A DNA stretch of 64,000 nt from Fimbriiglobus sp. Its GTDB lineage: Bacteria; Planctomycetota; Planctomycetia; Gemmatales; Gemmataceae. The stretch lies in the NCBI GenBank assembly GCA_022841795.1, contig JALHQU010000016.1:3238-67237 (forward strand). Direction: 5' to 3'. The translations under genes and the position numbers were made by a program. A model generated the notes under the pieces. That model was not told the DNA's origin, did not search any database, and saw only the letters and a program-made list of their open reading frames with translations. Below are positions 3,152 to 64,000 of the stretch, one piece after another (the first letter of the stretch is position 1; every line of letters begins with the position of its first letter).

Positions 3152-4909
3152 ATGCTCAGGTTCCCGCCCGCCGTCCGCCGACTCGCGGCGACATCACTGC
3201 TTCTGGCGCTGTCCGCCGGGGTGGTGTTCGCCGGCTCGCCGAAGGACAACAAGCCGGCCGGCAAGGCCGACGTTGCGGCCCTCACCCCGATCGACATCGA
3301 CAAGAAGATCATCGACGACATCAAGGCGAACACGCAGGTGAGCCAGAACCTGCAGCACCTGTGCGACGTGATCGGCCCGCGGCTGACCGGCTCGGCCAAC
3401 CTGAAGAAGGCGAACGAGTGGGCGGCCGAGAAGATGAAGGAGTACGGGCTGACCAACGTGAAGTTGGAGCCGTGGGAGATCCCGGTCGGGTGGGAGCGGG
3501 GCACCGCCACCCTGAAGATGATCGAGCCGAACCCGGGCAAGCAGATCCCGGTGGCGGCCAGCGCCTGGACGCCCGGCACCAAGGGCAAGATCACCGGCGA
3601 GGTGGTGTTCCTCGATGCCAAGACCAAGGACGACCTGGCCAAGTACAAGGGCAAGCTGAAGGACGCGCTCGTCCTGTCCCGCCCGCCGTCAAACGTCGCC
3701 CCGATCACCGACCTGCGGTACGGGGCCGGCTCCGGCCCGCAGGCCCCGCCGCCCGCCCCGCCGAAAGACGAGCCGAAGAAGGAGGACAAGAAGGACGAGG
3801 TGAAGAAGGACGACCAGCCGCCGGCGGGCGGCGGGCGGGGCGGGTTCGGCCCGGAGGCGATGGCGCTCCGCCAGGCGATGGGCGAGTTCCTGCGGGCGGA
3901 GGGGGCGGCGGTCATGCTGTCCGATTCGGCCAAGCCGCACGGCCTGATCGTCACCGGCGGCGGGTGGGGGCGGATGGGCGGGGGACCGGGCGGCGGGGAG
4001 GGCGGCCGGGCGGCCCCGGAGCCGATGCCGTCGCTCAGCCTGGCGCACGAGACGTACACCATGCTGTACCGGCTGGCCACCAGCAAGGACGGGCCGAAGC
4101 CGAAGGTGGAAGTCGAGATCACCAACACGTTCATCCCCGGCCCGATCACAGTGTACAACACCGTCGGCGAGATCGTCGGCAGCGAGAAGCCGGACGAGTT
4201 CGTGGTCATCGGCGCGCACCTGGACTCGTGGGACCTGGGCACCGGGGCGACGGACAACGGCACCGGCAGTTGCGCCGTGCTGGAGGTGGCCCGCACCCTG
4301 GGCGCGCTGGCCAAGCAGGGGATCAAGCCGAAGCGGACCATCCGGTTCGTGCTGTTCACCGGCGAGGAGCAGGGGCTGCACGGGTCGAAGCAGTACGTCT
4401 CCCGGCACAAGGACGAGATGCCGAAGACGTCCGCCTGCCTGGTGCACGACACCGGCACCGGCAAGGTGCTCGGGCTGGCCATGCAGGGCCGCACGAAGGT
4501 GCGGGACATCCTGGAGCCGGAGTTGGCCAGCCTGAAGGATGTCGAGGGGTGGAAGGGGCTGAACATGCGGAACCAGGGCGGCACCGACCACCTGTCGTTC
4601 GACGCCGTCGGGGTGCCCGGGTTCGCCTGCGACCAGGAGACGGACGAGTACCGGCTGACCCACCACACCCAGACGGACACCTACGACCACGTGAAGATCC
4701 CGAACATCGTGCAGGGGTCGCAGGTGATGGCGGTGGCGGTGCTGCGGATCGCCAACCTGCCGGACATGCTGCCGCGGGAGCGGCCGGCCCGCACGGGCGG
4801 CGGTCGCGGCGGACCCGGCGGCCCGCCGCCGGCCGAGGAAGTGAAGAAGGACGAGGTGAAGAAGGAGGAGAAGAAAGAAGACAAGAAGGACGAGAAGAAG
4901 GATAAATAG
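3152..4909 (+). CDS. M28 family peptidase with signal peptide and Lys/Glu-rich low-complexity tail
   Basis: Signal peptide LLLALSAGVVFA. M28 zinc-ligand block HLDSWDLGTGATDNGTGS and EEQGLHGS. Internal and C-terminal KDE-rich repeats ending ...KKDEKKDK. Confidence 0.85.
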   Translation: MLRFPPAVRRLAATSLLLALSAGVVFAGSPKDNKPAGKADVAALTPIDIDKKIIDDIKANTQVSQNLQHLCDVIGPRLTGSANLKKANEWAAEKMKEYGLTNVKLEPWEIPVGWERGTATLKMIEPNPGKQIPVAASAWTPGTKGKITGEVVFLDAKTKDDLAKYKGKLKDALVLSRPPSNVAPITDLRYGAGSGPQAPPPAPPKDEPKKEDKKDEVKKDDQPPAGGGRGGFGPEAMALRQAMGEFLRAEGAAVMLSDSAKPHGLIVTGGGWGRMGGGPGGGEGGRAAPEPMPSLSLAHETYTMLYRLATSKDGPKPKVEVEITNTFIPGPITVYNTVGEIVGSEKPDEFVVIGAHLDSWDLGTGATDNGTGSCAVLEVARTLGALAKQGIKPKRTIRFVLFTGEEQGLHGSKQYVSRHKDEMPKTSACLVHDTGTGKVLGLAMQGRTKVRDILEPELASLKDVEGWKGLNMRNQGGTDHLSFDAVGVPGFACDQETDEYRLTHHTQTDTYDHVKIPNIVQGSQVMAVAVLRIANLPDMLPRERPARTGGGRGGPGGPPPAEEVKKDEVKKEEKKEDKKDEKKDK

Positions 4910-6257: not shown

Positions 6258-7682
6258 TCAGACCAACACGTCCTTTACCACGTTGCCGTGAACGTCGGTG
6301 AGCCGGTAGTCCCGCCCCTGGAACCGTGTCGTCAGCTTGGTGTGGTCGATGCCGAGCTGGTGCAGGATGGTCGCTTGCAAATCATGGACGTGGACCTTGT
6401 TCTCGCTCACCGCGAACCCGAGTTCCTCCGTCTCGCCGTAGCTGAACCCCCGCTTGACGCCGGCCCCGGCCAGCCACACGCAGTAGCAGTCCGGGTAGTG
6501 GTCCCGCCCCAAAATGTTCCCGCCGGCGGTGCGGCCCTCGCGGAACGGGGTGCGGCCGAACTCCCCGCTCCACACCACCAGTGTGTCGTCGAACATGCCC
6601 AGCCGCTTCAGGTCGCGGATGAGGGCAGCGATCGGTTTGTCCATCGTGGCGCACTTGGTGGTGAGGCCGTCGCGGATGTCCTCGCTCTTGTTGGTGCCGT
6701 GGAAGTCCCACCCCCAGTCGAACAACTGCACGAAGCGCACGCCCTTCTCGGCCAGCCGCCGGGCGAGCAGGCAGTTGTTGGCGAAGCTCGCTTCGCCCGG
6801 CTTCGCCCCGTAGTCGTCGAGAACCTCCTTCGTCTCCTTGCTGATGTCCATCACCTCGGGCACGGCCGTCTGCATGCGGAACGCCAGCTCGTACTGCTGG
6901 ATCCGCGTGGCCGTCTCCGGGTGGCCGAGTTCCGCCGCCTGCATCTCGTTCAGGTCCTTCAGCGCGTCCAGCGTCTTGCGGCGGGTGTCGCGGTCCATCC
7001 CCTTCGGGTCGGAGACGTACAGCACCGGGTCGCCCTTGCTGCGGCATTGCACCCCCTGGAACACGCTCGGCAGGAACCCGCTGCCCCAGCAGTTCGCCCC
7101 CCCGCTTGGCTGCACCCCGGACGAGATCAGCACCACGAACCCCGGCAGGTTCTCACTCTCGCTGCCCAGGCCGTAGGTCACCCAGGTGCCCATGCCCGGC
7201 CGCCCCTGGCGGTTCGACCCGGTGAAGAGCAGCAACTCGGCCGGGGCGTGGTTGAACTCGTCGGTGTTCATCGACTTGATGACGGTGATGTCGTCGGCCA
7301 GGCCGTGGAAGTTCGGCACCGCGTCGGACATCCAGATGCCGCCCTTGCCGTGCTGCTTGAACTTCCGTGGGGTGCCCATCAGCTTCGGCACGCCGGAGGT
7401 GAACGCGAACCGCCGCCCCTTCAGGTACGACTCGGGCACGTCCTTGCCGTCCCGCTTCACCAGTTCGGGCTTGTAGTCGAACAGGTCCAGGTGCGGCGGG
7501 GAGCCGGACATGTGCAGGTAGATGACCCGCTTCGCCTTCGGCGCGAAGTGCGGCTTCTTCGGCGACAGCGGGTTGTCGGCGGCGACCGAGTGACCGCCGA
7601 GCAGCGACACCGCCGCCGCCCCGAGGCCGAGCGAGCCGCTGCCGAGGAAGTGCCGGCGGGTGTGGTGCAGGAGTGGGGGCAT
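6258..7682 (-). CDS. DUF1501 domain protein (Tat signal, sulfatase-like fold)
   Basis: Twin-arginine motif RRHFLGSGSLGLGAAAV. Typical DUF1501 blocks (HMSGSPPHLDLFDYKP, GREHYP). Start trimmed from 7784 to the ATG at 7682 (MPPLLHHTRRHFLG). Confidence 0.85.
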   Translation of the reverse strand: MPPLLHHTRRHFLGSGSLGLGAAAVSLLGGHSVAADNPLSPKKPHFAPKAKRVIYLHMSGSPPHLDLFDYKPELVKRDGKDVPESYLKGRRFAFTSGVPKLMGTPRKFKQHGKGGIWMSDAVPNFHGLADDITVIKSMNTDEFNHAPAELLLFTGSNRQGRPGMGTWVTYGLGSESENLPGFVVLISSGVQPSGGANCWGSGFLPSVFQGVQCRSKGDPVLYVSDPKGMDRDTRRKTLDALKDLNEMQAAELGHPETATRIQQYELAFRMQTAVPEVMDISKETKEVLDDYGAKPGEASFANNCLLARRLAEKGVRFVQLFDWGWDFHGTNKSEDIRDGLTTKCATMDKPIAALIRDLKRLGMFDDTLVVWSGEFGRTPFREGRTAGGNILGRDHYPDCYCVWLAGAGVKRGFSYGETEELGFAVSENKVHVHDLQATILHQLGIDHTKLTTRFQGRDYRLTDVHGNVVKDVLV

Positions 7683-7692
7683 GGGATGTTCC

Positions 7693-7782
7693 GGGCGAAC
7701 GGTCGGCGTCAGCCGGCCGGTGGTTTGACGAACGGTTGATTCTGGCGTGAACCACCGGCCGGCTGACGCCGACCGTTCGCCC
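7693..7782. repeat. perfect 33-bp inverted repeat with 24-nt loop between DUF1553 and DUF1501 genes
   Basis: GGGCGAACGGTCGGCGTCAGCCGGCCGGTGGTT ... AACCACCGGCCGGCTGACGCCGACCGTTCGCCC, read directly from the sequence. It fills the 106 bp intercistronic gap. Confidence 0.85.
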
Positions 7783-10675: not shown

Positions 10676-11122
10676 TCACTTGTCCTTGCTTTCCTCCTTC
10701 ACCCGCTTGAACACGAGGCAGTACTGGCCGCCGGGTCCGCCGCCCTTGAACTCGGTCGGCCGCGGCCGCCCCGGCTGGGCGTGGCACACCGTCAGCGTGT
10801 CCCCCTCCAGCTTGTAGATGTACGGCAGGGGTTCCTTCACCGTCTTCCAGGTGACGTCCATGTGCTTCGGGGATTGGGACTCGTCCAGGGTGAACAGGGT
10901 GTCCGGCGGCCTCTCGGGGGTGCCGTTGCCCGAGCTCATTTTCCCGTCCTGGATCACCTTCCACCACATGGCATCGGCTTTCGGCCCTTGCCCGCCGTCG
11001 AGCGTGACGCCCACCCACCGCCCTTCGAGCAATTCGGCGTCCGACTTCTTCTTCAGTGACTTCGGCACCGGCGCGGCGGCAGCCGCCGACGTGACCAGCA
11101 GCAACACGACGGCGGTACGCAC
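10676..11122 (-). CDS. TIGR03067-like secreted small protein, type B (GTG start)
   Basis: Start trimmed to GTG giving (M)RTAVVLLLVTSAAAAAPVPK. Paralog of 11131..11577 (EGRWVGVTLDGGQGPK, YIYKLEGDTLTVC, tail KRVKEESKDK). Confidence 0.65.
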   Translation of the reverse strand: MRTAVVLLLVTSAAAAAPVPKSLKKKSDAELLEGRWVGVTLDGGQGPKADAMWWKVIQDGKMSSGNGTPERPPDTLFTLDESQSPKHMDVTWKTVKEPLPYIYKLEGDTLTVCHAQPGRPRPTEFKGGGPGGQYCLVFKRVKEESKDK

Positions 11123-11130
11123 CGGGCACC

Positions 11131-11577
11131 TCACTTGCTCTCGTCCTTCACCCGCTTCCAGACGAACGTGGTGCCGACCTGCCCGCCGGCGAACGCGGTG
11201 GGCCGCGGCTGGCCGGTGCTGGAGTGGATGGTCTTCAGCGTGTCGCCGTCCAGCTCGTAGATGTACAGGCAGGTGGACCCGCCGGTCGTCACGTCCAGGT
11301 GCCGGGGCGACTGGGTCTGGTCGAGCGTCATGCCCGCCCCGACGTACCCCTTGGATTTGGGTGTGCCGGTGTGCAGCTTCCCCTCCGTCACCCGCCAGTA
11401 GAACCCCTCCCAGCCCGGCGGCGGGGGCTTCGGCCCTTTCCCCTCGTCCACCGTCTCCACCTGCCACAACCCCTCCATCTGCTGGAGGTCGTCCGCCTTC
11501 TTGATCGTCTTCGGCACCGGGGCGGCGACTACCGACGCGGCCAGCAGAGCGACGACCGGGACGGCGAACCGCGGCAT
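11131..11577 (-). CDS. TIGR03067-like secreted small protein, type B
   Basis: MPRFAVPVVALLAASVVAAPVPK signal. EGLWQVETVDEGKGPK, YIYELDGDTLKTI, tail KRVKDESK. Confidence 0.7.
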   Translation of the reverse strand: MPRFAVPVVALLAASVVAAPVPKTIKKADDLQQMEGLWQVETVDEGKGPKPPPPGWEGFYWRVTEGKLHTGTPKSKGYVGAGMTLDQTQSPRHLDVTTGGSTCLYIYELDGDTLKTIHSSTGQPRPTAFAGGQVGTTFVWKRVKDESK

Positions 11578-11646
11578 GGCTTGGCCCTGATGAGCGTGAT
11601 TCGTTCATTTTGCCCGGCGTCCGGCGGGGAAGCAACTCGCAAAATT

Positions 11647-11709
11647 GGAACCGGGCACGCCGTGACCGGGTGGGTTCCGAACCCACCCGGTCACGGCGTG
11701 CCCGGTTCC
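11647..11709. repeat. near-perfect 63-nt palindrome (30-bp arms) inside the paralog array
   Basis: GGAACCGGGCACGCCGTGACCGGGTGGGTT-CCG-AACCCACCCGGTCACGGCGTGCCCGGTTCC. Only the 3-nt centre breaks the symmetry. Confidence 0.85.
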
Positions 11710-11720
11710 AGACACCTCGC

Positions 11721-12176
11721 TCACTTATCCTTCTTCTCCTCCTTCACCCGCTTGAGCGTGACCACCGGCATCCCCTTCTCGTTCGGCTTCATCTCGGTCG
11801 GCCGCTTGGCGTCCTTCCCCTCGGCGATGCAGATCCTGAGGGTGTCGCCGTCCAACTCGTAAATGCCGGGGGAGGTGCGGCCTTCGCGGACCAGGTCGAT
11901 CGCCTTCACCTTGGCCGCCGGGTCCAGCTTGTACTCGCCTTCCATCTTTTCGCCCCCCGGCCCGCCGGCCATCTCCATCTTGCCGTCCTTCTTGAAGATC
12001 AGCCGCATCGTCTCCAAGTCGTCTTTCGACGGGCCGCCCTGCCCGCCGCCGTTGTCGAACTTCTCGATCTTCCAGGTGCCCTGGATGGCGTCCTCGTCCT
12101 TCGCCTTCTCCTTGTTCTGGGCGACGGCGAGCAGGGCGGTGGCGGCCACCGCGAGCACGGGCAGAACGAATCGCAT
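11721..12176 (-). CDS. TIGR03067-like secreted small protein, type A
   Basis: Start trimmed to MRFVLPVLAVAATALLAVA. IQGTWKIEKFD, IYELDGDTLRIC, tail KRVKEEKKDK. Confidence 0.75.
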   Translation of the reverse strand: MRFVLPVLAVAATALLAVAQNKEKAKDEDAIQGTWKIEKFDNGGGQGGPSKDDLETMRLIFKKDGKMEMAGGPGGEKMEGEYKLDPAAKVKAIDLVREGRTSPGIYELDGDTLRICIAEGKDAKRPTEMKPNEKGMPVVTLKRVKEEKKDK

Positions 12177-12240
12177 CGCGAGTCTCCGGGGTGTAAGGTT
12201 GGAAACGGACGGCTCGGTGCCGAACGCTTTCGCGTTCGGC

Positions 12241-12309
12241 GGGCCGCCACAGAGGGCGGCCCCTACGCCGAAAAGCTCTCTTCGTAGGGGCCGCCCTCTG
12301 TGGCGGCCC
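12241..12309. repeat. REP-like element: two inverted copies of GTAGGGGCCGCCCTCTGTGGCGGCCC flanking a short stem-loop
   Basis: GGGCCGCCACAGAGGGCGGCCCCTACG ... CGTAGGGGCCGCCCTCTGTGGCGGCCC. The same 22-26 bp unit recurs at 43195..43216. Confidence 0.8.
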
Positions 12310-12347
12310 GTGGTCCGGCCCCGCCGGACCACTCCCGGACCCATCTC

Positions 12348-12815
12348 TCACTTTTCCTTCTTCTCGTCTTCCTTCACCCGCTTCAGGGTGATGACGGCGA
12401 TGTTCTTCCCGTCCGTCTTCATCTCCGTCGGCCGCACGCCCTTCTGCCCGCCTTCGGACACGCAGATCTTGAGCGTGTCGCCGTCCAGTTCGTAGATGCC
12501 CAGCATCGTGCTGGTCTTCTCGATCATGTCGAGCGACTTCGGCGTGGTGGTGGCGTCGAGTTTGTAGTCGATCTCGTCCTGCATCCCGTCGCCGCGGCTG
12601 GCGGCCACCTTCCCGTCCTTGAACGTCAGCCGCAGCTTGGTAATCTCGCCGGGCGGCGGGCCGCCGGCGGCCCCGCCCAGGTCGAACGTCTCCACCTTCC
12701 AGGTGCCGAGGATGGCGTCCTCGTCTTTGACTTTCGCTTTCTCCTTTGGCACCGGGGCGGCGGTCAGCCCGAGGGCCAAGGCGGGCAGGACGAGGGCGGT
12801 CAGAGCGAATCGCAT
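12348..12815 (-). CDS. TIGR03067-like secreted small protein, type A
   Basis: MRFALTALVLPALALGLTAAPVPK. ILGTWKVETFD, IYELDGDTLKIC, tail KRVKEDEKKEK. Confidence 0.75.
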   Translation of the reverse strand: MRFALTALVLPALALGLTAAPVPKEKAKVKDEDAILGTWKVETFDLGGAAGGPPPGEITKLRLTFKDGKVAASRGDGMQDEIDYKLDATTTPKSLDMIEKTSTMLGIYELDGDTLKICVSEGGQKGVRPTEMKTDGKNIAVITLKRVKEDEKKEK

Positions 12816-12846
12816 CGGGAGTCTCCGGGTTCGGGGTCAGGGCGGG

Positions 12847-23583: not shown

Positions 23584-23674
23584 AACCACAGAGGCACAGG
23601 GACACAGAGAAGACGAGAAGAATTGCTCGGAAACTATCTTCCTGTCTTCTCTGTGTCCCTGTGCCTCTGTGGTT
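23584..23674. repeat. AACCACAGAGGCACAG... hairpin repeat (31-bp arms), copy 1
   Basis: AACCACAGAGGCACAGGGACACAGAGAAGAC-29 nt-GTCTTCTCTGTGTCCCTGTGCCTCTGTGGTT. Related copy at 44279..44356. Confidence 0.8.
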
Positions 23675-28818: not shown

Positions 28819-29535
28819 TCAAGACGGAAGACTGGACGAAGTAGCCGCCTTCGCCTTCTCCTCGGCCGAGCTGCCCCGCAGGTACAGCGGTTCCAGCCGC
28901 ATCATCTCTTCGACCGTCAGCGGCGGGAGGGTCCGGGCCACGCGGAACACCGCCTCGACGGACGGCTCGACCACCGGCGAGCGGGTGACGTGGACGGGCA
29001 GTTTGTCGGCGAATGTCACCACGCCGGGGCCGGCAACCGAGAGTTCACCCCCCTCCCGGCTCGCTTCGCTCGCCGACCTCCCCCTCAGGGGGGGAGGTGT
29101 GAATTGGGCCACCCACTCGTCGAACCGTTCGATCCGCAACTCGCTCATCGCCGTCCCGTCGGTGAACCGCTGGACGTAGATCGTCCCCTGTAGCGCATCC
29201 CCGATCACGTCCACCGTTCCGGGCACGTCGGCGGCGACGGCCGCAAATGTCGGCACCGCCACCAGCGAACACCCCAGGGCGTAGGCGAGCGTCTTGGCGG
29301 CGGTCAGGCCCACCCGCAGGCCGGTGTAGCTGCCGGGGCCGACCCCGACGGCGATGTGCGTCAGGCTCCGCGGGGTCAGCCCGCACTCACGAATCAGCCG
29401 CTCAACAGTCGGCAGCAGGTGCCGGTTCTGCTGCCGGCCGGCGGGCAGGTCTTCGGCCGCGATCACCGCCCCGCCGACCGCCACCCCGACCCGCGACCGG
29501 CCGGACGTTTCCAGAATCAGCCACGCGCCGCTCAT
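28819..29535 (-). CDS. tsaB: tRNA threonylcarbamoyladenosine biosynthesis protein TsaB (YeaZ)
   Basis: LILETSGRSRVGVAV and GPGSYTGLRVGLTAAKTLAYAL blocks. Carries an in-frame palindromic insert (see findings). Confidence 0.8.
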   Translation of the reverse strand: MSGAWLILETSGRSRVGVAVGGAVIAAEDLPAGRQQNRHLLPTVERLIRECGLTPRSLTHIAVGVGPGSYTGLRVGLTAAKTLAYALGCSLVAVPTFAAVAADVPGTVDVIGDALQGTIYVQRFTDGTAMSELRIERFDEWVAQFTPPPLRGRSASEASREGGELSVAGPGVVTFADKLPVHVTRSPVVEPSVEAVFRVARTLPPLTVEEMMRLEPLYLRGSSAEEKAKAATSSSLPS

Positions 29536-32062: not shown

Positions 32063-32075
32063 CCCGCGGCCGGTG

Positions 32076-32132
32076 TTGGAGTTCACGCTTCAGCGTGACT
32101 GAGCGTGGATCACGCTGAAGCGTGAACTCCAA
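32076..32132. terminator. 23-bp perfect-stem hairpin immediately downstream of yidC
   Basis: TTGGAGTTCACGCTTCAGCGTGA-11 nt-TCACGCTGAAGCGTGAACTCCAA. The stem extends imperfectly further outward. No T-run, consistent with a GC-rich genome. Confidence 0.6.
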
Positions 32133-32347
32133 CCCGGCCGCTATTTTCTCCTGGCCTGTCTGAGCGGACAGCACATCTCTGAGGGCGGGCGGGCGCCGGC
32201 ACCCCCGGCGCTGCCGCCCACCCGGAACACTCGTTAACACCCGTGTCGTGTTTCCCGACCGCGGCGGCGGAACGAGCCGCCGGCCGGTTTCCCCCGCCTT
32301 CTGCGTGGCCTATCCTGCTGCGCCCAATTCGCCCGCGGAGACACCAG

Positions 32348-39392: not shown

Positions 39393-39488
39393 TGGTGAAC
39401 CGCGAGCGTCAGCCGCAGATCGGGTGAACCGCGGGCGTCAGCCCGTCGGGTTCTGAACACACCCAGGCGGCTCACGCCGCCGGTTCAC
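39393..39488. repeat. GGTGAACCG...CGGTTCACC palindromic repeat, family copy 3 with tandem partial duplication of the left arm
   Basis: GGTGAACCGCGAGCGTCAGCC...GGTGAACCGCGGGCGTCAGCCCGTCGGG...CCCAGGCGGCTCACGCCGCCGGTTCACC, in a divergent promoter region. Confidence 0.8.
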
Positions 39489-39711
39489 CCAAGACCGCCT
39501 GAAGGCGGGACACCAGCGAAGACACCGACGACCCCGCTCGCAGGCTCGCGGCGATGACGCCGATTCGCCGCAAGTCGTTGGCGGGTGAGGGATGTTCCAA
39601 AAATGCGCAACGTTTCCCGGTGGGGTGTGTACAAACCCGCCGAATGAAACGGCGGCGGCGGCCCCGCCTTTTCCCGCTTGTGGTTCCGCCGGCCGGACCG
39701 ACAATGTCCGC

Positions 39712-43216: not shown

Positions 43217-44280
43217 GCGGAGAACCTCCCGTGTCCGACGCACTCAAGCCGATCATCCTGGACGACGACGAGGTGCAGACCGCCGAGCGGCTACGGTTCT
43301 CGTGCCAGAAACTGCTGGCCGAGTGCGGGAAGGTGATCGTCGGCCAGACGGAGGTACTGGAGCAGCTGCTGCTGGCGGTGCTGGCCCGCGGGCACTGCCT
43401 GCTGGTGGGCGTGCCGGGGCTGGCGAAGACGCTCATGATCCGCACCCTGGCGGACGGCATGAACCTGACGTTCAACCGGGTGCAATTTACACCGGACCTG
43501 ATGCCGACGGACATCACCGGCACGGAAATCCTGTACGACGACAAGGGCAGCGGGCAGCGCGGGTTCCGGTTCGTGAACGGGCCGATCTTCGCCAACATCG
43601 TGCTGGCCGACGAGATCAACCGCACCCCGCCGAAGACCCAGGCGGCGCTGCTCGAAGCCATGCAGGAGCGACAAGTGACGGTCGCCGGCTCCCGGCACAA
43701 GCTGCCCGACCCGTTCTTCGTGCTGGCGACGCAGAACCCGATCGAGCAGGAGGGCACGTACCCGCTGCCGGAAGCCCAGCAGGACCGCTTCATGTTCAAC
43801 ATCCGGGTGGACTACCCGGACGAGGAGGACGAGTACCGCATCATCGAGTCCACCACCTCGGCCAGCCGCCCGCACCTGGACCGGGTGATCGCCACCGCCG
43901 ACATCCTGCAGATGCAGGACCTGGTGCTGAAGGTGCCGGCGGCGCAGTACGTCATCCGGTACGCCGGCAAGCTGGCCCGCGCCACCCGCCCGAAGGCGAA
44001 CCCCGGCGAGGACAGCACCGCCCCGGACTTCGTGAAGAAGTACGTCAGCTTCGGCGCCGGCCCGCGGGCCGGGCAGAGCCTGATCCTGGCGTCCAAGGCG
44101 CGGGCCATCCTGCACGGCCGCACCTACGTGGCGATCGACGACGTGAAGGCGGTGGCGCAGCCGGTGCTGCGGCACCGCATCATGACCAACTACCACGCCG
44201 AGGCCGAGGGCATCAGCAGCGACGACATCGTCACCCGCCTGCTGCCGCTGATCCCGCGGGACGGGGAAAAAGGCAACTAA
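43207..44280 (+). CDS. moxR: MoxR-family AAA+ ATPase
   Basis: VIVGQTEVLEQLLLAVLARGHCLLVGVPGLAKT Walker A, LADEINR Walker B. An alternative GTG start at 43231 is possible. Confidence 0.85.
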   Translation: MAARGEPPVSDALKPIILDDDEVQTAERLRFSCQKLLAECGKVIVGQTEVLEQLLLAVLARGHCLLVGVPGLAKTLMIRTLADGMNLTFNRVQFTPDLMPTDITGTEILYDDKGSGQRGFRFVNGPIFANIVLADEINRTPPKTQAALLEAMQERQVTVAGSRHKLPDPFFVLATQNPIEQEGTYPLPEAQQDRFMFNIRVDYPDEEDEYRIIESTTSASRPHLDRVIATADILQMQDLVLKVPAAQYVIRYAGKLARATRPKANPGEDSTAPDFVKKYVSFGAGPRAGQSLILASKARAILHGRTYVAIDDVKAVAQPVLRHRIMTNYHAEAEGISSDDIVTRLLPLIPRDGEKGN

Positions 44281-44356
44281 CCACAGAGGCACAGAGACAC
44301 CGAGAAGTCAGAGAACCGTTCTGTCGTCTTCTCTGAGTCTCTGTGCCTCTGTGGTT
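44279..44356. repeat. AACCACAGAGGCACAG... hairpin repeat, copy 2
   Basis: AACCACAGAGGCACAGAGACACCGAGAAG ... TCTTCTCTGAGTCTCTGTGCCTCTGTGGTT, between moxR and the DUF58 gene. Confidence 0.8.
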
Positions 44357-48816: not shown

Positions 48817-50505
48817 TCACTTCTTCGCCGGCAGGGTCGGGCAGGTGAACGGGAACGGCCGCACCTGGTTGGTACACAGGTACAGGCGGACGTGGCGGAC
48901 CGGCTGGCCGTTTCGGGTCATCCAGAAGTCGTCGATCAGCTCCACGCGGCTGAAGTACGGGGCGTAGTCCTTCGGCTCCCACGGGCGGTCGTCCAGGGCC
49001 ACCATCACCCCGTCCCACCCCAGCCAGTCGTCCGGCCGGCTCCAGTAGGCGAACCCGCGGGTGTCGTACCGGCTGTAGGAGAGCACCGGCGCGCGGCCGG
49101 CGGTGGCGAACCCGATCTGCCCGCCCTCGTGGAACACCCCGCCGCAGAACACGAACGTGTTCGGCCGGCCGACCAGCCCGTGCGCGTCCAGCCGGTCGGC
49201 CAGTGACTCCCACCCGCACTGCTCGTTCAGCGGGTCGTCGGCGATCGGCACGGCGGCGGCGAACAGCCCGGTGCGGGCGTGGACGGCGAACAGGAAGGTG
49301 AGGGTGACGAACCAGAACGCCCAGCCGGCGACGATCAGCCGCACCGCCCGCGGCCGGCGGTCGGCCCACTCTACGAACTGTCTCGCCGCGAGTGGTAGCA
49401 GCGGCAGCACCCCCACCAGCGTCCAGTACCCGGAGGTGATGCGGACGAACGACACCGCCAGGAAGAAGCTCAGCGGCACCACCGCCAGGCAGAGCAGCAG
49501 CCGCTCGTGGTTGGTGTTCGCCCGCCACCGCCGCAGCCCGTTCACCAGCACGACGAGGACGGCCGCCCACAGGAACGGGCCGAGGTAGCCGAGCTGCCCG
49601 ACCAGCATGCGGGCGATGAACTCCGGGCGGAACTCGGTGCCCACCGCCCGCCCGCCCTGGTACGCGAACGACGCCCACTCGTGGGTGGCGTTCCAGTACA
49701 GCACCGGGGCGAACCCGGCCACGCCGATGAGCACCGCCAGGTACGGGCCGGGGGTGAGTAGCACCCGCCGGGCGGCCGGCGTGAGCAGGATGTACAGCAC
49801 TGCCCCGGCTGGCAGGAACACCGCGTGGTACTTGCTCAGCAGCGCCCCCGCCCACGCCAGCCCGACCCACACCCAGGGCAAAGTAGCAGGCACACTCCGT
49901 GTGCCGACTGCCGCGGACGGCACACGGAGTGTGCCTGCTACTTTTTCGTCCACCACCGCCCGGCCGAGGGCGATGAGGGTGAGCAGGGCGAAGAACAGGA
50001 ACGGGCCGTCCGGCATCACCTGCCCGCCGGCCCCCAGGCTGAAGAACGGCGCCAGGTTCCACAGCACCGCCGCCCACAGGCCGGCCCGCTCGCCGTACCG
50101 CCCGGCCGTCCACCGCGCGAGCACCCACGCCGTCGCCGCCGAGATGAGCACGAACCCGACGCGGATGGAAAACGGCGACACCTGCCCGCCGCACGCCAGC
50201 AGCCCGCCGGCGGTCACCGCCGCCAGCATCGGCGGGTGGTCGAAGTAACTGAGCGACGGGTGGACGGTGTACAGGTAGTGGTACCCCTCGTCCTTGTTCA
50301 CCGGCATCACCGCCGCCCACGCCAGCCGCAGCGCCAGCGCCACCCCGATGACGACCGCGGTGGCGGCCCGCGGCGAGAGCGGGGTGCGGCGGACCGCCGG
50401 GCGGGCGGGGGCCGGCGGGGTGAGGATGAGCGGCGTGATCGGCGCACCGGGGCTGGCGAAAGCGAGTGTGGTGCGAGATCGGCCGCCCCGCCCGCCCCCG
50501 CGCAC
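48817..50505 (-). CDS. glycosyltransferase family 39 (ArnT/PMT-like) membrane protein
   Basis: Many TM helices. DEGYHY..FDHPP and KYH motifs of dolichyl-phosphate-mannose/ArnT-type transferases. The exact start is uncertain. Confidence 0.7.
   Translation of the reverse strand: MRGGGRGGRSRTTLAFASPGAPITPLILTPPAPARPAVRRTPLSPRAATAVVIGVALALRLAWAAVMPVNKDEGYHYLYTVHPSLSYFDHPPMLAAVTAGGLLACGGQVSPFSIRVGFVLISAATAWVLARWTAGRYGERAGLWAAVLWNLAPFFSLGAGGQVMPDGPFLFFALLTLIALGRAVVDEKVAGTLRVPSAAVGTRSVPATLPWVWVGLAWAGALLSKYHAVFLPAGAVLYILLTPAARRVLLTPGPYLAVLIGVAGFAPVLYWNATHEWASFAYQGGRAVGTEFRPEFIARMLVGQLGYLGPFLWAAVLVVLVNGLRRWRANTNHERLLLCLAVVPLSFFLAVSFVRITSGYWTLVGVLPLLPLAARQFVEWADRRPRAVRLIVAGWAFWFVTLTFLFAVHARTGLFAAAVPIADDPLNEQCGWESLADRLDAHGLVGRPNTFVFCGGVFHEGGQIGFATAGRAPVLSYSRYDTRGFAYWSRPDDWLGWDGVMVALDDRPWEPKDYAPYFSRVELIDDFWMTRNGQPVRHVRLYLCTNQVRPFPFTCPTLPAKK
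49880..49944. repeat. 65-bp perfect palindrome embedded in-frame inside the GT39 CDS
   Basis: AAAGTAGCAGGCACACTCCGTGTGCCG-ACTGCCGCGGA-CGGCACACGGAGTGTGCCTGCTACTTT, encoding ...KVAGTLRVPSAAVGTRSVPATL... Confidence 0.85.
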
Positions 50506-50608
50506 CCCGTTTCCGGAATACCCGTCCGCCTGTCCGCGGCGGAATGAGCCTTTTCGTTCCCGTCGCTACAGCCCGCAGGGTCGCCGGCGGACGCTCGCCA
50601 GGCAGTGG

Positions 50609-50678
50609 GGCAAGATGGCATCTTGCCACGGCAAGTTGGAAACTTGCCCCACTCCCGATGGCAAGTTGGAAACTTGCC
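50609..50678. promoter_or_regulatory. three tandem 19-bp palindromic operator-like sites (GGCAAG-N7-CTTGCC)
   Basis: GGCAAGATGGCATCTTGCC (50609), GGCAAGTTGGAAACTTGCC (50630), GGCAAGTTGGAAACTTGCC (50660), in a divergent intergenic region. Confidence 0.6.
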
Positions 50679-61757: not shown

Positions 61758-61765
61758 GTTGAACA

Positions 61766-61832
61766 GGCGAGCCGGGAGCGTGAGCGACCGGAGGAATTCC
61801 TGACCTCCGGTCGCTCACGCTCCCGGCTCGCC
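61766..61832. terminator. 29-bp perfect-stem hairpin between convergent genes (bidirectional terminator)
   Basis: GGCGAGCCGGGAGCGTGAGCGACCGGAGG-AATTCCTGA-CCTCCGGTCGCTCACGCTCCCGGCTCGCC, followed by ATTTCATT. Confidence 0.7.
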
Positions 61833-61835
61833 ATT

Positions 61836-64000
61836 TCATTCCGCCAGTTTGATCTTCCGCTTCACCTCGTCCAGCCGGCCGTTCTGCCGCCCGTGGTGGC
61901 TGTCCTTGAACAGCTTTTCCGCATTCTTCCACGCCACCGCTGCTCGCTTCGTATCCCCTTGGCGGAACGCCACATCCGCCAAGTGGTCCCACACGATCCC
62001 GTCCGGGGCGGACTCGGTCGAAGCGACCGCCTGTTCCAACAGTTCCCGCGCCTCCTTCAGTTTGCCGCGGCGGAACTGCACCCACCCGAGGCTGTCCTGG
62101 TACCCGCCGCTCTCCGGCTCCGGGTCGCCCCGTTTGGTTCGCTCGAACCTGTCCAGCGCAATTGCTCGCCGGATCAGCACTTCCGCCTCGTCCAGCTTCC
62201 GCCCCTGGTCGGCCAGGTTGTACCCCAGGTTGTTCAGCACCAGTACGTCATCCGGGTCGTCGTCGAGCAACTGCCGCAGCACCGCCTCGGACTCGGCGAA
62301 CCGCTTGAGCAGGTTGAGGGTGTCCGCCTGCTGGAGGCGGAACGACCGCAGGTCGCGGCCGGTCGGCCGGTCCGTGTCCAGCACCTTCTCGACCGCCTTC
62401 AGCGCGTCGGTGTGTTTGCCCAGCAGGTTGAGCACCCGGATGCGCTGCTCGTCGGCGTAAAACCCGCCGCCGATGTCGGTTAGCTTCGCCAGCGCCTCCC
62501 GCTCCCGCCCGAGTTCGGCGAACGCCACCGCCGCCTGCGAGGCGATGCCGTAGTAGATGAACTGCTGCTTGTTCCGCCGCATCACCTTCAACTCGTCCGC
62601 CGCGTCGATCACGTCCGGCCACCGCCGCTGGCCGCTCAGGTGGGTGAGCAGCAGCCAAGTCACCCGCAGGCTGGATTTCCTGCGGGCGAACGCCCACAAC
62701 GGGTCGATGACCGCCGGAGCCAACGCGTCCCGCGTGGCCAGCCCGCTGATCAGTTCGAGCGTGTCCGGGTGGCGGTCGGTCTGGGACCGGGCGTCGTCCG
62801 TCAGTTGTTTCACCAGCACCTTGGTGAACCCGGCCTTCGGCGTAACCGCTTTCACCGCCGCACTTAACAGCCGCACCCGCTCCACCGCCTCGGCCGGCGG
62901 CGGGTCGGCCTCGGCGTCCGGCTTGGTGTCCGGGTCGTCGAACCCGACCGGCCGACCGGCCTTCGCCGCCTTGTCGATCAGGTCGAGCAACTCCTTGGGC
63001 CGGTTGGTGTTGCGGTACGCGGCCACCAGCACACGGGCCTCGTCGGCCGTCTTCAGCCCGTTGAACAGCTTCCGCACCACCGCGTCCGCCGCGTCCGGGT
63101 CGCCGGCCATGCCCGCCGCCGCCGCAAGCCATTGCGGGGCAAGGTTCTTGCGGTTCGCCTCGGCATGTTTGGCGAGCGCGTCCGACAACTCGTCCGTCCG
63201 GTTCAGCCGGCGGTACAGTTCGACCAGCCGTTCATATGGCTCGAATGCCGCCGGGCGGAGCGCCAGGTACTTCTCCAGTTCGCGGAGCGATCCGGCCGCA
63301 TCCCCCTGCGCCAGCAGGCTTTCGGACAGGTGCGAGTGCAGCCGGGCCACCCCCGCCGGGTCGTTCGCCCCCTTGGGGTCGGCGGCCAGGTCGCGGGCGG
63401 TCTGGAACGCAGCGGACGCCGCGGCGTAACTCCCTTGTTTCACCAGGGTTGTGCCCAGCCCCTCGTACAGCCGCATCCGCTCGCGGTCGAGTTCGGCCGG
63501 GGTGAACACGTCGGGGTGAAGGAACGCGGCTTTCTTGTCGGCGATCAGTTTGAGCGAGTCGCGGCGGGCGGTTTCGCCGGCCTTCGCATCACCTGCCGAG
63601 TCGGCCGCGCGGGTCAGTTCCCGCAGCACCGCCAGCTTCACCACTGGTTCGGCAAAACCGGGGCTGTCGGCGGCGGTGCGGAGCGCCTTGACGGCGTCGG
63701 CGAACTGGCGGGCGTCGGTTAGCAGCCGGCCGAGCAGCCGGGCGGTCTCGTGGTCGGTCGGGTCGCGGTCGAGGACTTGCCGGGCGGCGCGGATGGCCGC
63801 CGGGTCGCGGCCGAGTTCGGCGTACAGCCGCGCCAACTCGCGTTGGGGCGCGGTGGCGGTCGGGTCCTTGTCGGCGGCGGACTGGTGCTGCCTGGCGGCC
63901 TGGGCCGGTTGTTCGTTGCGGGCATGGATGACGCCGAGGCCGAACCGGGTGAGGGCGTCTCGGCGGGCGGCTTCGGCCGCGGTCGCCGGGGCGAGCGGAA
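61836..64000 (-). CDS. TPR repeat protein (5' end runs off the window)
   Basis: Repeated TPR-like helices throughout. Upstream of the annotated TTG the frame stays open to the window edge (translated manually: ...LGVIHARNEQPAQAARQHQSAADKDPTATAPQRELARLYAELG). Confidence 0.7.
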   Translation of the reverse strand, partial: PLAPATAAEAARRDALTRFGLGVIHARNEQPAQAARQHQSAADKDPTATAPQRELARLYAELGRDPAAIRAARQVLDRDPTDHETARLLGRLLTDARQFADAVKALRTAADSPGFAEPVVKLAVLRELTRAADSAGDAKAGETARRDSLKLIADKKAAFLHPDVFTPAELDRERMRLYEGLGTTLVKQGSYAAASAAFQTARDLAADPKGANDPAGVARLHSHLSESLLAQGDAAGSLRELEKYLALRPAAFEPYERLVELYRRLNRTDELSDALAKHAEANRKNLAPQWLAAAAGMAGDPDAADAVVRKLFNGLKTADEARVLVAAYRNTNRPKELLDLIDKAAKAGRPVGFDDPDTKPDAEADPPPAEAVERVRLLSAAVKAVTPKAGFTKVLVKQLTDDARSQTDRHPDTLELISGLATRDALAPAVIDPLWAFARRKSSLRVTWLLLTHLSGQRRWPDVIDAADELKVMRRNKQQFIYYGIASQAAVAFAELGREREALAKLTDIGGGFYADEQRIRVLNLLGKHTDALKAVEKVLDTDRPTGRDLRSFRLQQADTLNLLKRFAESEAVLRQLLDDDPDDVLVLNNLGYNLADQGRKLDEAEVLIRRAIALDRFERTKRGDPEPESGGYQDSLGWVQFRRGKLKEARELLEQAVASTESAPDGIVWDHLADVAFRQGDTKRAAVAWKNAEKLFKDSHHGRQNGRLDEVKRKIKLAE

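Follow-up and report, generated by a model that had tools for sequence, protein, structure and literature searches.

We studied a 64-kb stretch of DNA from Fimbriiglobus sp. of the Planctomycetota (contig JALHQU010000016.1), called the window below, and within it a 65-bp palindrome at positions 49880-49944 that lies in a gene for a membrane glycosyltransferase. The palindrome is most probably a small non-coding repeated element that was inserted into the coding sequence of this GT-C (ArnT/PMT_2-like) enzyme, namely a doublet of two repetitive extragenic palindromic (REP) units with the GTAG tag, similar to a REPIN (a REP doublet forming a hairpin). We put the probability of this reading at about 0.8. 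The features of the locus are:

48817-50505, minus strand: host gene, intact, GT-C fold membrane glycosyltransferase (PF13231 PMT_2, ArnT-like), 562 aa; assigned from Pfam, homologues and model
49879-49944, minus strand: codons 188-209 of the host gene (KVAGTLRVPSAAVGTRSVPATL), net +17 residues relative to orthologues; from alignment, GC content at third codon positions (GC3) and model
49880-49944, no strand assigned: REPIN-like doublet of two complete 32-nt REP units 1 nt apart, 65 bp; boundaries from a 137-copy position matrix
49880-49911, plus strand: REP unit A, AAA-GTAG-CA-GGCACAC-TCC-GTGTGCC-GACTGC, head at 49880; tail GACTGC with 2 differences from the consensus GTCSGC
49913-49944, minus strand: REP unit B, AAA-GTAG-CA-GGCACAC-TCC-GTGTGCC-GTCCGC; identical to the family consensus
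49889-49905, no strand assigned: inner hairpin of unit A, 7-bp stem GGCACAC/GTGTGCC with a 3-nt loop; from stem covariation across family variants
49919-49935, no strand assigned: inner hairpin of unit B; from stem covariation across family variants

The palindrome in its host gene

The element reads AAAGTAGCAGGCACACTCCGTGTGCCG-ACTGCCGCGGA-CGGCACACGGAGTGTGCCTGCTACTTT, with perfect 27-nt arms around an 11-nt centre, and the sequence confirmed what an earlier note on this DNA had described here, a palindrome with 27-bp arms and an 11-nt loop in frame in a GT39/ArnT-like coding sequence. The same note called it a perfect 65-bp palindrome, which is true of the 27-nt arms only: the repeat finder gave arms of 32 nt, separated by a single base, but at 94% complementarity, and the 11-nt centre is only partly palindromic. 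Within the window the 27-mer arm occurred at two sites, both in the element, and none of 100 dinucleotide-preserving shuffles gave a match. Folded as single-stranded DNA, the element was predicted to form a single 27-bp hairpin of -37 kcal/mol (z = -10, 0/200 shuffles as stable), and as RNA it reached -57 kcal/mol (z = -8.4, again 0/200). Each arm also has a small hairpin of its own, GGCACAC-TCC-GTGTGCC, and the whole element corresponds to two full units set tail-to-tail plus one base.

The element lies inside a minus-strand open reading frame (ORF; 48817-50505, 562 aa) whose composition is coding-like, with GC of 0.70/0.53/0.94 at codon positions 1/2/3. PF13231 (PMT_2) matched the protein in two stretches, one on either side of the insert; hundreds of homologues, annotated as ArnT-like or GT39, were found in planctomycetes, and an identical 562-aa protein is recorded in NCBI (P0001). 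An AlphaFold (AF2) model of the protein reached a predicted local distance difference test score (pLDDT) of 85.7 and a predicted template modelling score (pTM) of 0.86, and its best Foldseek match was ArnT (PDB 5f15). The protein retains the invariant residues of the family, including D72/E73 of the DEGYHY motif, and the element is read in frame as K188-VAGTLRVPSAAVGTRSVPAT-L209.

Alignment with orthologues supported a lineage-specific in-frame insertion in a loop between helices, as the earlier note had suspected. All 19 aligned orthologues (47-67% identity) lack 17 residues at the insert point: they read D-x-P-G-x-T-L-P-W, and the window protein reads D-E-(20 residues)-T-L-P-W. The short loop was present in 96 of 120 homologues, the inserted segment was found in 0 of the 119 homologues other than the window protein, and REP-encoded peptides were limited to the window protein. 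The GC3 of the insert was 0.50 (11 of 22 codons) versus 0.965 elsewhere in the gene (binomial P = 5e-11), and such an unadapted composition suggests a recent event. The model shows residues 187-208 as a coil that joins helix 166-186 to helix 209-224, and pLDDT drops under 50 at 190-198 of the insert. The insert uses one of two stop-free frames, and the host frame is open across 562 codons. The 65 bp of the element cannot be divided by three and the net gain relative to orthologues is 51 bp, which means that about 14 bp of the ancestral loop would have been lost.

The 32-nt unit across the phylum

The 20-mer GCAGGCACACTCCGTGTGCC of the unit was scanned against 185,579 species-representative genomes and was found exactly in at least 115 stretches, from about 77 assemblies among the matches listed (counted by accession prefix). 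The hosts among these listed matches were Pirellulales (Pirellulaceae, Lacipirellulaceae, Thermoguttaceae), Planctomycetales (including Schlesneria and Planctomyces), Gemmatales (Gemmata, Limnoglobus, Gemmataceae), Isosphaera, Tepidisphaeraceae and metagenome-assembled genomes (MAGs) labelled Kuenenia, together with two closed Poribacteria genomes, one Verrucomicrobiales MAG and one probably mis-binned contig. A sequencing adaptor or artefact as the source of the 20-mer was ruled out by the taxon restriction, by in-frame copies in collinear genes and by the closed long-read genomes. When 137 distinct contexts were aligned in register as a position matrix, conservation extended from -6 to +25 around the 20-mer and information fell to background just beyond, which defined a unit of 32 nt, AAW-GTAG-CA-GGCACAC-TCC-GTGTGCC-GT-CSGC. 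The GTAG head at -3 to 0 was nearly invariant (G 135/137, T 136/137, A 133/137, G 137/137). Single relatives have several copies: the MAG CAWJKP01 has at least 5 stretches with the unit, the closed genome OY969783.1 at least 4, and one fetched locus (L027; the L numbers are our labels for individual stretches) 4 copies within 8 kb. Other closed genomes with the unit are OZ244999.1, OX639992.1 and CBDBFT01.

The stem of the inner hairpin was conserved by pairing. A fuzzy search of the fetched DNA, which tolerated as many as 6 mismatches over 25 nt and should give less than 1 copy by chance, found 251 copies of the unit in 70 sequence variants, and several variants were altered on both sides of the stem (GGCACAT..ATGTGCC, GGCATAC..GTATGCC, GGCACGC..GCGTGCC and GGCAGAC..GTCTGCC). 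Over 55 distinct variants the 7-bp stem was 94.5% paired, with compensatory (double) changes in 4 of its 7 pairs; 15 compensatory cells were observed versus 2.2 in shuffles (0/500 reached 15), and the signal was lost when the partner columns were slid by 1-3.

The arrangement of the copies was also that of a REP family. Adjacent units within 150 nt of each other were tail-to-tail in 75 cases, head-to-head in 2 and direct in 39, and the spacing of the window doublet belongs to the modal, tight tail-to-tail class. Other copies were singletons, doublets with spacers of about 10-100 nt, or tandem arrays. The one regular array seen, at 4647-5154 of L078 (closed MAG OZ244999.1), has nine tandem units with a period of 61 nt and identical GT-rich spacers; the identical spacers indicate tandem duplication or amplification, and a CRISPR array was ruled out by them and by the other copies being singletons or doublets. 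Most sampled copies had no coding-like ORF spanning them and many lay just after stop codons, as judged by ORF span. With its GTAG head, conserved short hairpin, dispersed multiple copies and dominance of inverted doublets, the unit qualifies under most definitions as a GTAG-tagged REP. A scan with Rfam 15 gave nothing except sub-threshold matches to generic miRNA hairpins (at most 40 bits versus 90 required), and the unit was absent from an exact-sequence literature search and from the supplements of two REP surveys.

Two observations on other sequence collections stand beside these results. In IMG/VR, with 2.9 million contigs, the 20-mer was found in 8 stretches (L119-L126) of 6 contigs labelled as viral, one of which (IMGVR_UViG_3300025935_000252, 21 kb) carries five copies; these contigs may be host fragments. 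Three Kuenenia-labelled stretches (L026, L040, L092) and three of Schlesneria (L064, L072, L082) have a second repeat upstream of the unit in common (…GGCGTCAGCCCAATGGCACTCACTTTGCC…), which suggests mis-binned contigs or a shared composite element.

Among 149 exact matches, some were spanned by long ORFs of coding-like composition, and in six cases Pfam domains flanking or spanning the unit confirmed that it lies in frame:

L079, about 3560-3630: mnmA, doublet inside the HUP domain
L102, about 2690-2775: agmatine deiminase, doublet
L100, about 4260-4375: DUF1553/PSD1 protein, domain split in two
L005, about 2750-2810: DUF1592/DUF1588 protein, between the domains
L049, about 935-960: DEAD-box helicase
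L069, about 7445-7470: HI0933-like flavoprotein

The in-frame units wrote the same few peptides again and again (VAGTLRVPS or VAGTFHVPS, GTRSVPAT, SSRHTPCA, GRHTECA). The third forward frame holds the TAG of the GTAG head, and for this reason only the stop-free frames were used. A 52-aa concatenate of the REP-encoded peptides, compared with a protein database, returned 26 candidates, all of them short hypothetical ORFs, in a word index that was ill-suited to such a query and did not recover the window protein itself.

The loop of the glycosyltransferase that received the element is a recurrent permissive insertion site. About 14 other homologues have longer versions of it, with up to about 35 extra residues, and two of them, both on metagenome contigs, could be inspected at the DNA level. 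One (L117) has a doublet of CGAAAAATGGGTCTGACCCC at 958-1038 and the other (L118) a palindrome with 29-nt arms built of GGAGTCA heptamers at 588-686, and both repeats are unrelated to the window unit.

Mobilisation and alternative explanations

In E. coli, REPs and REPINs are known to be mobilised by REP-associated tyrosine transposases (RAYTs), and the same has been proposed in Pseudomonas (Nunvar 2010; Bertels & Rainey 2011; Ton-Hoang 2012; Messing 2012). By analogy with the REP/RAYT systems of these bacteria, we infer that the unit may be mobilised in the same manner: it would fold as a hairpin in single-stranded DNA, and the hairpin would be copied by a transposase of the Y1 HUH (RAYT) type. 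Most insertions in genes would be lost, and those that fall in permissive loops and keep the frame would persist as a surface loop of 17-20 residues. In the glycosyltransferase gene the frame would have been kept by a gain of 65 bp together with a loss of about 14 bp, net +51 bp. The inserted peptide is most likely a tolerated passenger and not an adaptation.

Several points weigh against the insertion of a mobile REP doublet. The 64-kb window, which is all that was searched of the source genome, has a single doublet of this unit. The exact junction of the doublet was unmatched in the metagenome collection, so there is no evidence of this doublet being copied as a unit. A length of 65 bp is not divisible by three, and a single-step insertion cannot give an intact frame. 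The best non-self relative has only 66% protein identity, so no close empty site is at hand, and the insertion boundaries and the 14-bp loss are therefore putative. Near-identity of a REP across a phylum is also unlike the usual, vertically inherited REPIN-RAYT systems. Lastly, weak methods applied to the window, to 116 loci (about 0.9 Mb) and to the 8 viral stretches brought up no RAYT or Y1 transposase; the methods were tblastn with an approximate E. coli RayT query, a regular expression for the HUH...Y motif, clustering of ORFs and a look at the ORFs that lie between distant unit pairs. A RAYT usually occurs in a single copy and the sample consisted of 8-kb pieces, so missing one is expected. 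One tblastn match (L082, E = 0.076) was not a transposase, and text matches to "RayT" in planctomycete species papers came from the author name Raytselis.

In an unlikely alternative, the unit serves a host function, for instance as the binding site of a conserved planctomycete protein or as an mRNA-stabilising or terminator hairpin; it would have spread by recombination, template switching or selection, and the glycosyltransferase copy would be a by-product. A core that is nearly invariant across orders, and even phyla, fits the constraint of a host factor better than a drifting selfish element, and the many copies just after stop codons and the absence of a RAYT near any copy in the fetched loci and viral stretches would fit as well. 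The terminator scan also flagged the inner hairpin alone with a weak T-run on the antisense (plus) strand of the window, with nothing at the element on the coding strand. However, the GTAG head, the stem-loop, the tail-to-tail doublets with variable spacers, the tandem arrays and the insertions in unrelated genes are the signature of REPs and REPINs; there is no reason why a binding site or a terminator should lie inside mnmA or agmatine deiminase, and the single-copy habit of RAYTs makes their absence from 8-kb samples an expected result.

It is improbable that the insertion was co-opted, with selection acting on the loop or on the mRNA hairpin (for example through translational pausing as the protein enters the membrane, through processing by RNase or as an added surface loop). 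The arms have remained perfect over 27 bp within a coding region, the RNA hairpin is very stable, and about 14 other homologues have insertions in the same loop. But these loop insertions vary in sequence and length, which argues for tolerance rather than a shared function, and the peptide of the insert, predicted by the model to be disordered, is dictated by the repeat and recurs in unrelated proteins. The unadapted GC3 of the insert also speaks for a recent event.

About equally improbable is a young pseudogene, in which the insertion inactivated the gene and the frame has yet to decay. The perfect palindrome suggests recency, and a loop of 20 residues between transmembrane helices could disturb GT-C packing. 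This is opposed by the 562 open codons and the invariant residues that were kept, by the GC3 outside the insert, by a model that is confident on either side of it, and by homologues that accept still longer insertions in the loop. Retention of the frame also required a compensating change, which argues for selection.

It is very improbable that the palindrome is an artefact of assembly or amplification, for example a fold-back chimera. Chimeric reads can yield palindromes and the source is apparently a draft assembly (a 67-kb contig), but both flanks run collinear with orthologues and keep the frame, where a fold-back would invert one of them; the two arms have different tails, in the manner of independent units, and both arms match a repeat of about 77 independent assemblies among the matches listed, including closed long-read genomes. 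A local inverted duplication of native coding sequence was excluded, since both arms agree with the consensus found across the phylum and orthologues lack them.

Relation to known repeats and meaning

The insertion of a mobile REP doublet agrees with a kind of event that is already known, intragenic GTAG-REP dimers, and the window unit adds to that kind. Di Nocera et al. (2013, PMC3733652) described GTAG- and CGTC-tagged REPs in over 80 species, among them Planctomycetes (R. baltica) and Opitutus terrae, a bacterium of the Planctomycetes-Verrucomicrobia-Chlamydiae (PVC) group. Their survey also reported tail-to-tail dimers 1-2 bp apart, as well as dimers that lie inside known genes and there encode 20-30 residues. 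In its tables, the R. baltica families GTAG-20 and GTAG-21 encode peptides that differ from those of the window unit (PMC3733652).

Compared with the described GTAG REPs and REPINs (Nunvar 2010; Bertels & Rainey 2011, PMC3116915; PMC3733652), the window unit has the same plan: it is about 30 nt long, with a GTAG head beside a 7-bp stem-loop, and occurs in many scattered copies, predominantly as inverted doublets that can fold into a long hairpin; there are sub-families whose stems carry compensatory changes, and occasional tandem clusters. It differs in that no linked RAYT was seen in the sequence sampled, and in that described families are mostly species- or genus-specific, whereas the core of this unit is identical in about 77 species-level genomes among the matches listed. 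This breadth of one near-invariant core across orders is unusual. The intragenic dimers of Opitutus terrae are close parallels, with partners 1-2 bp apart, in frame in known genes, 20-30 residues and a PVC host. They have another unit sequence and belong to another phylum, and many of their targets are DNA-repair genes, in contrast to the targets found here (a GT-C glycosyltransferase, mnmA, agmatine deiminase, DUF1553/DUF1592 proteins and a helicase).

The earlier note likened the palindrome to Rickettsia palindromic elements (RPEs). The likeness stands as far as an in-frame palindromic insertion in a functional gene adds a short surface or loop peptide (Ogata et al. 2000), but the family is another one, a GTAG-headed REP doublet. 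By description, RPE-1 is about 100-150 bp long and Rickettsia-specific, in contrast to a 65-bp GTAG-tagged element of a planctomycete. RPE-4 and RPE-6 were classed as CGTC-type REPs (Di Nocera et al. 2013, PMC3733652), and this tag marks a superfamily different from that of the GTAG unit. Bacterial miniature inverted-repeat transposable elements (MITEs; Correia/NEMIS, ERIC, RUP, Nezha) are likewise small non-autonomous hairpin repeats in or beside genes, but they measure 70-300 bp and have terminal inverted repeats derived from insertion sequences (ISs) and target-site duplications, and the window element is a doublet of 32-nt units. A MITE was ruled out: the flanks of the element (GACGAA / GCCCTG) have no direct repeat in common, and the arms are complete REP units, not IS ends.

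Other long palindromic doublets of the window lie at 12240-12310, 50601-50656, 23584-23674, 44279-44356, 7693-7782, 39422-39490, 11646-11710, 32075-32133 and 61760-61838. These nine belong to several sequence families and are all intergenic, mostly just 3' of stop codons. The one at 12240-12310 consists of two copies of another GTAG unit set head-to-head (GTAG-GGGCCGCC-CTCTGT-GGCGGCCC), and that at 50601-50656 is a GTGG-headed hairpin pair about 100 nt upstream of the glycosyltransferase gene. The palindromes at 23584 and 44279 form one family, and those at 7693 and 39422 form another, possibly of CGTC type. The source genome is thus host to several REP-like families. On the minus strand at 10676-12836 there are three tandem paralogous small secreted proteins of about 155-210 aa with ends ...LKRVKEE.KKDK, and the palindromes 11646-11710 and 12240-12310 sit exactly at the junctions of these paralogues.

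The nine palindromes being intergenic, the window gave no support to the idea of the earlier note that this genome tolerates palindromes inside ORFs. Tolerance of in-frame insertion holds instead for the repeat family across the phylum and for the glycosyltransferase loop. The tsaB case to which the earlier note refers is a hairpin of G/C runs at about 29040-29105 in the tsaB ORF (PF00814; 28822-29544, minus strand), C-terminal to the Pfam match. It reads ACCTCCCCC-CCTGA-GGGGGAGGT, is nested in TTCACACCTCCCCCC...GGGAGGGGGGTGAA and encodes about PPPLRGRSASEASREGG; the repeat finder did not see it at seed 8.

For this locus, an odd palindrome in a conserved gene is explained as the tolerated insertion of a mobile repeat, and annotators are cautioned against treating the gene as broken or the assembly as wrong. 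The unit is a ready marker for planctomycete DNA, and its in-frame copies are a natural loop-insertion mutagenesis, which shows protein loops that tolerate about 20 extra residues. We propose more tentatively, as something possible rather than probable, that one GTAG-REP core has stayed near-invariant across Planctomycetota, spilling into Poribacteria and Verrucomicrobia, and has recurrently written the same peptides into protein loops. If true, this would be a phylum-scale counterpart of the Rickettsia RPE phenomenon, and it would mean either an ancient conserved partnership of REP and transposase or active horizontal spread, both of which contradict the picture of lineage-specific, vertically drifting REPIN-RAYT systems. 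If the phylum-wide identity holds in complete genomes, the unit would be a test case for the persistence or spread of REP or REPIN populations, and of their transposases, through very long spans of time.

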